Assembly: GCA_013239625.1 (NCBI GenBank) | Contig: MU053810.1 | Coordinates: 4,248,071-4,312,070, forward strand | Length of the DNA stretch: 64,000 bases | From: Lama guanicoe | Taxonomy: Eukaryota | Direction of reading: 5' to 3' | In this document: one piece after another, positions 9,131 through 11,078 of the stretch | Layout: the number at the start of each line of letters is the position of its first letter | How positions within the stretch are numbered: position 1 is the first letter of the stretch | Made by a program: the position numbers and the translations under genes | The notes under the pieces: model-generated | Databases searched by the model: none | What the model was told of the DNA's origin: nothing | Seen by the model: only the letters and a program-made list of their open reading frames with translations

Positions 9131-11078
9131 CCAGGTCAAGATTTTTTTTTAAACGGAGTTTATTGTATTTAATACATTATAAAATTTGAAAAATCATAGG
9201 AAAGCAGCAGACTCAAACTGGAGCAAGTCTAACAAGTAATAATTCTGGCCCCTTTGCAAAGCTGATCAGTTTAAAAACAAAGTAACGTTCACATCTAGGA
9301 GGTGGACAAAAAAGTGTGACTTCTGTACAAACTACATTTAAAATTTCACGTCTAACGTCTTTCGAATGCAGTGTGCTCAGGAGAGTTTTTTGTTTGTTTG
9401 TTTTTGAAGTCCTGCCTGGTCCCTATCTAAAGAGAGACACAAAATATCCATATGCAAAAAGACACAATTCTAGGTGTTTTGTTTTATTTTGTTTTGTTTT
9501 AAAAAAAGACAAAGGAAAAAAGAAACATTGGATGGTTGTTGGCAATGGAAACTGTAAGGAGATTCGTCCTCACTGCTCATGGCTTGTTTATTGGTCAGAG
9601 GCCTTGGGGGCCCAGAACACTTCACGGACATCACAGCACCAACTGTAGCTACCACCTTTTTTCTCTTTTTTTCGGCATTTCCTACCTTTTGACATATATA
9701 TATATATATATTTATATATTTATATATTTTTTACACCTTAATTGAATCACTATACCCAACTGTTCCCAAACGAATACAGGTGTGGTCTCTATTGGATATA
9801 AATGTGTCTTTCATTCAGTTTTAGGTCCAGGACTTGGTTTGCTGTCCCAACTGCATATAAATGTCCCTTTTTTGTCTGAGTTATTTGTTGTGTATGTTTT
9901 TTTTTATTTTTTGCATAAGAAATACGTCCATTTAGTCCAGAGGCTCTTGGTTTATCCGGATGACAGAGGGTCCACAGGGATCCGCCTCAGTTCCTGCCAC
10001 AGGAGGTATTCGCTGAACCGAGATGAGTGCACTCCTCCCCCGCAGGAGCCCACGATTTCAAATCCTCTTTGCTGCAATCTCTCGAGGACCTGGACTGAGT
10101 TGCGGTGACAGTAGCCGTTTAGTGGAAACCTGATGACGTGCGTCGAGTCACGGTTCCAGCCCTCGCTGATCTCCGGAAACACTTCTTCTATCAAGAACTT
10201 GTCGCCGCTGAGTGTGATCCTTTCTCCGAGGTCTGGGACAACACGCACCACTAGGCACTCACAGGGCCTTGAGAAGCGGCCAGTTTCTCTGTCCTGCTTC
10301 CATCTTTCCATCTCCAACAACATGGGCTGAAGCTGGAAGTATTTTGCCTCTTCATATAACAAAGTGTAACCCCCAAGCACCGCAGCACAGCCCGCCTCGT
10401 GCACCCTGGCCACAAACAGGCTTTTCCTAGAGGACCACATCCAACCCCTCCCCGGGGCTCCAGGAGCTCTCCTGCCCACGCTCGGGTCAGTGGGGTCCGC
10501 GCTTGGGTCCCAGGAAGGCAGGGTATGCATGTACCTTGAAATCGTCAGGAATGAGATTTGATGTTCGTAGAAAATTCAAGCTGTATCTGAACATCTGTCC
10601 GTCTCTGTCAATGAAATAGTGCTGTTTGAGACTGTCCAAAACAATGGGCTCTGTACCATCAAAAAGCCTTCCGATTCTTGATTCAGGGTATTTGGTGAGG
10701 GTGGCCAGGCTGCTGGTAAACATGTGGCCGCCCACGTCAATGTGGACGGGCGCATTGGACTTTGTGAGCTGTGCTGGAGTAGGAATGCCTTGGTTGGTCA
10801 GCGGAGAAGCAGGCGGTCTAGTGATCAGCGGTCTTGACATATTGGGCCGACTGTCCCTCTGGCAAAGTGGCGCGCGGGCCCGGGTGGGAGAGAGGGAGGG
10901 CCGACGGGACAGCAGGGTGGTCTGGCTTCTCTAAGTACTGCCCAAGGAGCAGGGCCCCTCCACCGCCCCTTCGTTGCCCCCCAAAGCTGGGGGCTTGAGG
11001 AGGCGGCTGCACAGGGCGGGCTGCAGATGCTGCTTGGAGAAGCCGGTGACTGGGTGGGGCCCTCCAGGTCAAGATTTT
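9131..11078 (-). pseudogene. KCTD1: Processed pseudogene (retrocopy) of KCTD1: 5'UTR 11063-10841, ancestral CDS 10840-9932, 3'UTR and poly(A)
   Basis: Translates to [27 protein letters not shown], then [27 protein letters not shown], and in another frame [18 protein letters not shown] at 9164-9159, T-run 9142-9150, perfect TSD CCAGGTCAAGATTTT at 9131-9145 and 11064-11078. Disabled by a 163-nt insert, 24-nt and 3-nt deletions, and a 1-nt frameshift near 9975. Confidence 0.97.
9694..9727. repeat. (TA)n microsatellite inside the KCTD1 retrocopy 3'UTR
   Basis: atatatatatatatatatttatatatttatata. Confidence 0.85.

Follow-up and report, generated by a model that had tools for sequence, protein, structure and literature searches.

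How did 163 nucleotides come to lie exactly at an exon junction of what otherwise is an intronless copy of the gene KCTD1? The copy is found on the minus strand of the window, i.e., the whole 64,000-nt stretch of Lama guanicoe DNA that was analysed, and a preliminary description of that stretch had viewed these 163 nt (the 'insert') as a possible fossil of a mis-spliced mRNA. That view is tentatively retained here. Its extension, to a poison isoform of KCTD1 in the germline, has no support beyond this one fossil.

The retrocopy and its insert

The KCTD1 retrocopy is full length (11063-9131, minus strand). An exact 15-nt repeat, i.e., a target-site duplication, bounds it, and its poly(A), as a run of nine A, merges into the 3' duplication (Table 1). 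The N-terminal part of the copy matches KCTD1 at E 7e-60 versus E 3e-40 for KCTD15, with the exon 4 part matching at E 6e-40 versus E 3e-8. On sequence similarity, that is, the parent of the pieces flanking the insert is KCTD1, not KCTD15. Three of the four parental junctions are spliced, with boundaries as taken from read-through gene calls, and the remainder of the copy indeed is intronless, as was claimed. The 5' leader resembles the N-terminus of the Bos mutus (yak) KCTD1 model (P0360), and the two share their junction with exon 2, so that nothing of the transcript appears to be missing, its 5' end being an alternative first exon. No ATG is found in the copy upstream of 10840.

Similarity to a parent, introns which are mostly gone, a poly(A) following a polyadenylation signal, and a target-site duplication in the 5-20 nt range all are present, these being the four features by which processed pseudogenes are recognised in the accessible text of Kazazian (2014, PMC4151081). 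By these features the copy is a processed pseudogene of the L1 type. The earlier attribution to L1 is consistent with the target-site duplication, AATAAA, and poly(A) remnant, with L1 thus presumably the enzyme responsible. The copy is real, old, and well preserved, and probably is not functional.

Table 1. Parts of the KCTD1 retrocopy, listed in the direction of transcription of its parent (window positions).
Feature	Position	Strand	Evidence
5' target-site duplication, 15 nt, with A-rich start as L1 endonuclease predicts	11064..11078	-	Repeat shared exactly with 9131-9145
GC-rich leader, alternative first exon of KCTD1, no ATG	10856..11063	-	tblastn to P0360, E 3e-9, with QR/DSRPN junction shared
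KCTD1 exon 2 part, start codon at 10840	10677..10855	-	PDB KCTD1 match, E 7e-60; boundaries from read-through gene calls P0111, P0115-P0120
KCTD1 exon 3 part, last residues DDFK (AAG), one Leu codon deleted (likewise in Camelus copy)	10535..10676	-	
163-nt insert, frameshifting, GT start, GGG end (ancestral GAG likely), likely from parental intron 3	10372..10534	-	Last 23 codons of one frame match KAB1254145.1 (P0238), EPY89075.1 (P0356)
In-frame TGA inside insert, 397 nt upstream of exon 4/5 junction	10487..10489	-	
KCTD1 exon 4 part, first codon Gly for Asp (likewise in Camelus), window-only 8-codon deletion near 10165	10091..10371	-	
KCTD1 exon 5 part and 3' UTR: C-terminal frameshift (stop 9952-9954, common to Camelus), AATAAA 9164-9159, short poly(A) remnant	9146..10090	-	
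3' target-site duplication, 15 nt	9131..9145	-	Repeat shared exactly with 11064-11078

The minus strand reads GAC GAT TTC AAG, followed by 163 nt running from GTACATGC through TGCTTGGG, and then GGT TAC ACT TTG. The insert thus does start with GT (as GTACAT), and does so at the DDFK/DY junction, as originally described. Also as described, it shifts the frame (163 mod 3 = 1), it holds a TGA, and, in the printed sequence, it has neither a poly(A) nor a target-site duplication of its own. Its GC content is 66%, with 8 CpG, and its CpG observed/expected ratio is 0.46 versus 0.42-0.70 for the rest of the copy and 0.08-0.17 for the flanks. A further claim was that both a 3' pyrimidine tract and a terminal AG are missing. 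For the window that is true, with the insert ending in GGG and pyrimidines making up only a 0.48 share of the 25 nt preceding its last three bases. The absence of AG, however, likely is not ancestral, as the equivalent codon in Camelus is for Glu. Within the insert there is as well an AG after TCCTCT (10427-10428), with a branch-point-like CTGAC about 60 nt upstream (10486-10490), so the insert might be composite, with 108 nt that resemble an intron and 55 nt that resemble an exon.

The preliminary description also placed an exon boundary of KCTD1 and KCTD15 at DDFK/D, and this is borne out by homologous gene calls. Among 234 foreign proteins, 88 carry P[DE]DF[KRQ], and the residue that follows is Val (GTN) in 79, Asp in 3, Tyr in 3, Gly in 1, and Thr in 1, with 1 ending there. 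Reading into Val and then into unrelated sequence, as 79 of 88 do, is read-through into a GT intron, i.e., an intron sits at the insert site. A random insertion, by contrast, would fall within 2 nt of any of the four junctions of the 1747-nt copy with a probability of about 0.011 (approximately 1 in 90). Other diverged KCTD1 copies (P0267, P0248, P0367, and P0370, which are a gibbon record and unnamed ones) run from DFK to DY without an insert; P0248 combines a KCTD15-like N-terminus with a KCTD1-like body.

The insert precedes the start of exon 4 in 3 of 94 proteins, i.e., in the translation of the window itself, in KAB1254145.1 (P0238), and in EPY89075.1 (P0356). All six frames of the insert, compared with 416 fetched proteins, likewise match P0238 and P0356 only, the rest being Pro-rich noise. 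There is no second copy of the insert within the 64-kb window (best other BLASTN match, E 0.34), nor are there Rfam matches over 10300-11100 at E<=1, nor relatives of the insert in prokaryote genomes (308 pattern stretches) or viral contigs (59). A 17-nt junction pattern was present at 67 loci in metagenome contigs, none of which extends beyond 30 nt against the region, and these were set down to chance. One frame of the insert gave a single match among 1.84 billion representatives (E 8e-4, 37% identity), to a 2221-aa protein with six matched stretches, and this match was rejected. That search is a weak negative, covering one frame of six and having missed the Camelus records as well.

The window holds other features as well. 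At 30289-31627, minus strand, there is a second frameshifted and intronless-looking gene copy, this one of a YchF-type GTPase (MMR_HSR1 plus YchF-GTPase_C), which I take to be OLA1. Sequence below 30289 is 3' UTR-like, and one quick scan found no target-site duplication. An inverted pair, 39550-39990 and 53917-54362, is about 440 nt in length, 82-95% complementary in pieces, and 14 kb apart; likely both arms derive from the same mobile element. A short tRNA-like repeat, presumably the camelid SINE, recurs at 1062-1140, 5476-5548, 14297-14375, and 41170-41242.

Copies in Camelus, age, and decay

Querying with that frame of the insert which is open into exon 4 yielded 111 matches, the best being a dromedary record which starts within the insert and is identical over 80/93 positions. 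The same cluster includes a wild camel record that likewise starts within the insert, along with a 249-aa Bactrian camel model, XP_010966268.1. The latter is an NCBI 'PREDICTED' model which treats the insert as an intron, joining DDFK to GYTLL. All three records (KAB1254145.1, EPY89075.1, XP_010966268.1; i.e., P0238, P0356, P0357) are named KCTD1 and bear the derived changes of the retrocopy. As judged by those changes, they are annotations of the retrocopy, a pseudogene, and not of the KCTD1 gene, with the dromedary parental KCTD1 appearing instead to be KAB1258326.1. As a practical matter, these public Camelus 'KCTD1' entries mislabel a retrocopy as the gene.

Relative to parental KCTD1 records, 10 substitutions are common to the window and the Bactrian model, 7 are found only in the window, and 6 are found only in Camelus, a count that leaves out S133G (numbering off by one) as a change in the dromedary parent. 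The window and the model share as well a one-codon deletion and the C-terminal frameshift, with the 8-codon deletion seen in the window only. As the derived changes recur in the records of three Camelus species, two of which contain part of the insert, there was a single retrotransposition, insert included, which predates the split of Camelus from the lineage of the window. Branch lengths suggest an insertion age that is roughly 2.5 times that of the Camelus split. If that split is 16-17 million years old, insertion would have occurred about 40 million years ago, although with wide error.

The last codon of the insert is for Glu in Camelus versus GGG in the window, and the nearest Glu codon, GAG, is one change away. 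This Glu, along with the splice sites which the NCBI model needs, suggests that the ancestral insert likely ran GT...GAG, with the missing AG of the window a later change, all as viewed from Camelus proteins.

Residues 1-103 are identical in the chimpanzee, rabbit, and yak parents; the copies carry non-conservative changes, e.g., Leu-Arg, Pro-Leu, and Gly-Arg, and since insertion the copy would appear to have decayed neutrally. Between window and Camelus, however, 5/23 insert codons differ versus 13/240 coding codons (Fisher p 0.013; neutral simulation P 0.003-0.007), a comparison which was made post hoc and with a simulation that begins from the already decayed window sequence. The five differing codons all lie within the last 8 (window 10372-10395), the preceding 15 being identical, and three are CpG transitions, so this clustering may be chance plus CpG decay. 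The faster divergence of the insert nevertheless counts against a purely neutral picture, leaving a small chance that the coding part is constrained and the insert is spliced out in Camelus. That is, a GT...AG segment which entered as exon might now be removed as a mini-intron of 163 nt, located where the ancestral intron was, from the transcript of an expressed, 249-aa KCTD1-like retrogene. The 249-aa model has complete BTB and C-terminal domains, but the faster divergence is the single hint of such splicing, and I consider this scenario highly improbable. Were it true, an intron would have been regained by recycling a mis-spliced piece. In the open frame of the insert, P0238 and P0356 begin with the second Met rather than with the ATG in GTACATG, which hints, if weakly, at a difference there in Camelus or at a break upstream.

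Possible origins of the insert

The best explanation for the insert starts with parental KCTD1 pre-mRNA in which the normal donor after exon 3 would have been skipped, with a cryptic donor 163 nt inside intron 3 joined instead to exon 4. Reverse copying of this mis-spliced mRNA by L1 would then have given rise to a retrocopy with the insert at its exon 3/4 junction. The underlying cause most likely would be ordinary splicing noise rather than regulation. An origin in the first 163 nt of intron 3 is the leading candidate, but is to be regarded as tentative, and it is nearly tied with a second possibility, a cryptic cassette exon, as graded by judgement rather than by computation. With the cassette exon, which is a possible but somewhat doubtful source, the 163 nt would come from deeper within intron 3, with an AG acceptor on one side and a GAG/GT donor on the other, with the GT at the insert start being merely a common first pair of exon bases.

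Much of the evidence points to mis-splicing by way of the cryptic donor: the target-site duplication, AATAAA, and poly(A) remnant, the three other junctions which are spliced, the intron at the exact site, and the low probability of landing there by chance. The insert also starts with GT, as any 5' extension requires, which on frequency favours an extension roughly 5 to 1; for a cassette exon that start is a coincidence of roughly 1 in 5, given the consensus. The likely GAG end resembles the exon side of a donor, as the donor consensus has it, and so suits extension and cassette exon equally. Length, though, leans the other way: 163 nt is typical of exons, at this size extensions are less common than cassette exons, and an extension would result in a long exon, of about 308 nt.

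Read-throughs at the parental junction bear on these same two possibilities. GTACAT is a poor donor, and among 84 read-throughs at the DDFK intron the residue after Val is Ser in 44, Arg in 18, Thr in 10, and His, as GTACAT would supply, in 0, although these are mostly from fish and KCTD15 and are not independent. This argues against the cryptic donor and for the cassette exon. One intron further on in these genes, however, 98 read-throughs include Pro (15), Gln (8), Leu (7), and His (1) after Val, i.e., donors with C at +4 exist in this gene family, and if GTACAT arose from a parental GTACGT by CpG decay, then Val-Arg would be expected there in the parent. Read-throughs from the QMFRY form of exon 3, which is the human type, fall into three clusters (P0125, P0127 with 6 members, and P0134) and begin VRES or VRDS, to which the insert's VHAYPAF corresponds at Val alone. 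This too favours the cassette exon, but the clusters carry no taxon label, and the mismatch counts against the cryptic donor only if they are mammalian; among the read-throughs at this intron, none labelled as mammalian turned up. Against the cassette exon, no protein record among those searched has the insert beyond the Camelus retrocopy.

There may instead have been no splicing event at all. Intron 3 would have been retained, or pre-mRNA copied, with most of the intron then lost, whether by a template jump of the reverse transcriptase, by later deletion, or by parent-locus repair via an AG/G repeat. Such a repeat likely was present at either end of the insert, deletions (of 1 codon and of 8 codons) have occurred elsewhere in the copy, the first codon of exon 4 is altered (Asp to Gly), and 5 of the last 8 insert codons differ between window and Camelus. 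Semi-processed pseudogenes, moreover, are known, as described in the available part of PMC4151081. Losses of that sort nevertheless would have had to break within one codon of the start of exon 4 while entirely removing the pyrimidine-rich end of the intron (share of 0.48), making this origin rather unlikely. Less probable still, and indeed quite improbable, is foreign DNA, that is, a repeat fragment or filler which landed by chance at the old junction prior to the Camelus split. No source of the insert was found in the collections searched, though these contain almost no mammalian DNA. Against foreign DNA are the exact position, with its chance of about 0.011, the GT start, the likely AG end, the lack of poly(A) and target-site duplication, and a CpG ratio (0.46) which is like that of the rest of the copy rather than that of the flanks.

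Two other readings were discarded. Where gene calls run out of the parental intron into exon 4, the intron part closes with FFSFK, LFFQ, FPPQ, and similar; lacking any such 3' intron end, and with its pyrimidine share of 0.48, the insert is neither a whole retained intron nor the product of an alternative acceptor. A nested SINE or LINE was set aside given no poly(A) and no target-site duplication, a judgement made without a repeat library and so not a formal exclusion.

Known fossils and what the insert may mean

Processed pseudogenes reportedly were described by Shemesh et al. in 2006 as fossils of unannotated splice variants. The likeness is that a retrocopy records a transcript form which is missing from annotated gene models. 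The differences are that their fossils are human, whereas this one is of camelid KCTD1, its variant is frameshifting, and its parental source is putative. Retrocopies of mis-spliced mRNAs are a familiar type of genomic fossil, and one such copy by itself is no proof of a regulated isoform.

Semi-processed pseudogenes, such as rodent preproinsulin I and the TMF1 insertion in CYBB (Kazazian 2014, PMC4151081, in the portion available), are similar in being L1-type copies with target-site duplication and poly(A), and the KCTD1 copy similarly has putative intron-derived sequence at a parental junction. Semi-processed pseudogenes keep a whole intron, however, or end inside of one. The KCTD1 copy instead has a 163-nt piece which lacks a normal 3' intron end, i.e., both pyrimidine tract and acceptor, and it continues on to a normal 3' UTR. 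Retrocopies that inherit or gain introns also are known (PMC5470649, PMC2584115, PMC3002245, each in the part accessible), including the retrogenes RNF113B and DCAF12L2, with introns gained by intronization (Szczesniak et al. 2011, PMC3002245). As with these, there is a potentially spliceable GT-AG segment within a retrocopy, and it is so treated by the NCBI Bactrian camel model. With RNF113B and DCAF12L2, though, as far as the accessible text goes, exon sequence that had been copied became the intron, and splicing is observed, whereas the KCTD1 segment is extra to the mRNA, lies where an intron was ancestrally, has a pyrimidine tract that is poor, and has its splicing predicted only. The window copy, in addition, has no AG at the end of the insert.

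An mRNA is subject to nonsense-mediated decay (NMD) when its stop precedes an exon junction by more than 50 nt. The stop in the insert is 397 nt upstream of the last junction, and the source mRNA presumably would have been an NMD target, in agreement with the earlier description of the template as PTC-containing and likely NMD-sensitive. That same description went on to propose a germline KCTD1 'poison' isoform, for which the sole support is a single fossil, and about 15% of protein-coding transcript molecules are unproductive anyway, mostly via cryptic sites (Fair et al. 2024, PMC11387194, portion available). At such a frequency, one fossil of this type is to be expected from splicing noise. 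The parallel with those unproductive transcripts is the frameshift plus premature stop by way of a cryptic site, although the data of that paper, in the part available, are from human cell lines rather than from a camelid fossil. Nothing indicates that such an isoform is regulated, conserved, or expressed in the germline, and noise in splicing is explanation enough. Literature searches, mostly by listing and using word-start terms that also catch KCTD10-19, found neither a KCTD1 cryptic donor or exon nor a camelid KCTD1 retrocopy, which is a weak negative. KCTD1 had 0 matches in supplements of PMC8091538, PMC11387194 (2 files), PMC2919708, and PMC8187152, where event tables may be missed, and the accessible portions of PMC7290577, PMC3212892, and PMC11121487 contain nothing on the insert.

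As matters stand, the insert represents one fossil of likely splicing noise. Were its segment confirmed in the parental gene, and still spliced, then there would be an unannotated, unproductive KCTD1 isoform. KCTD1 represses AP-2alpha, according to the available part of PMC3212892, and such an isoform, if true, would as a dosage switch be of some interest.
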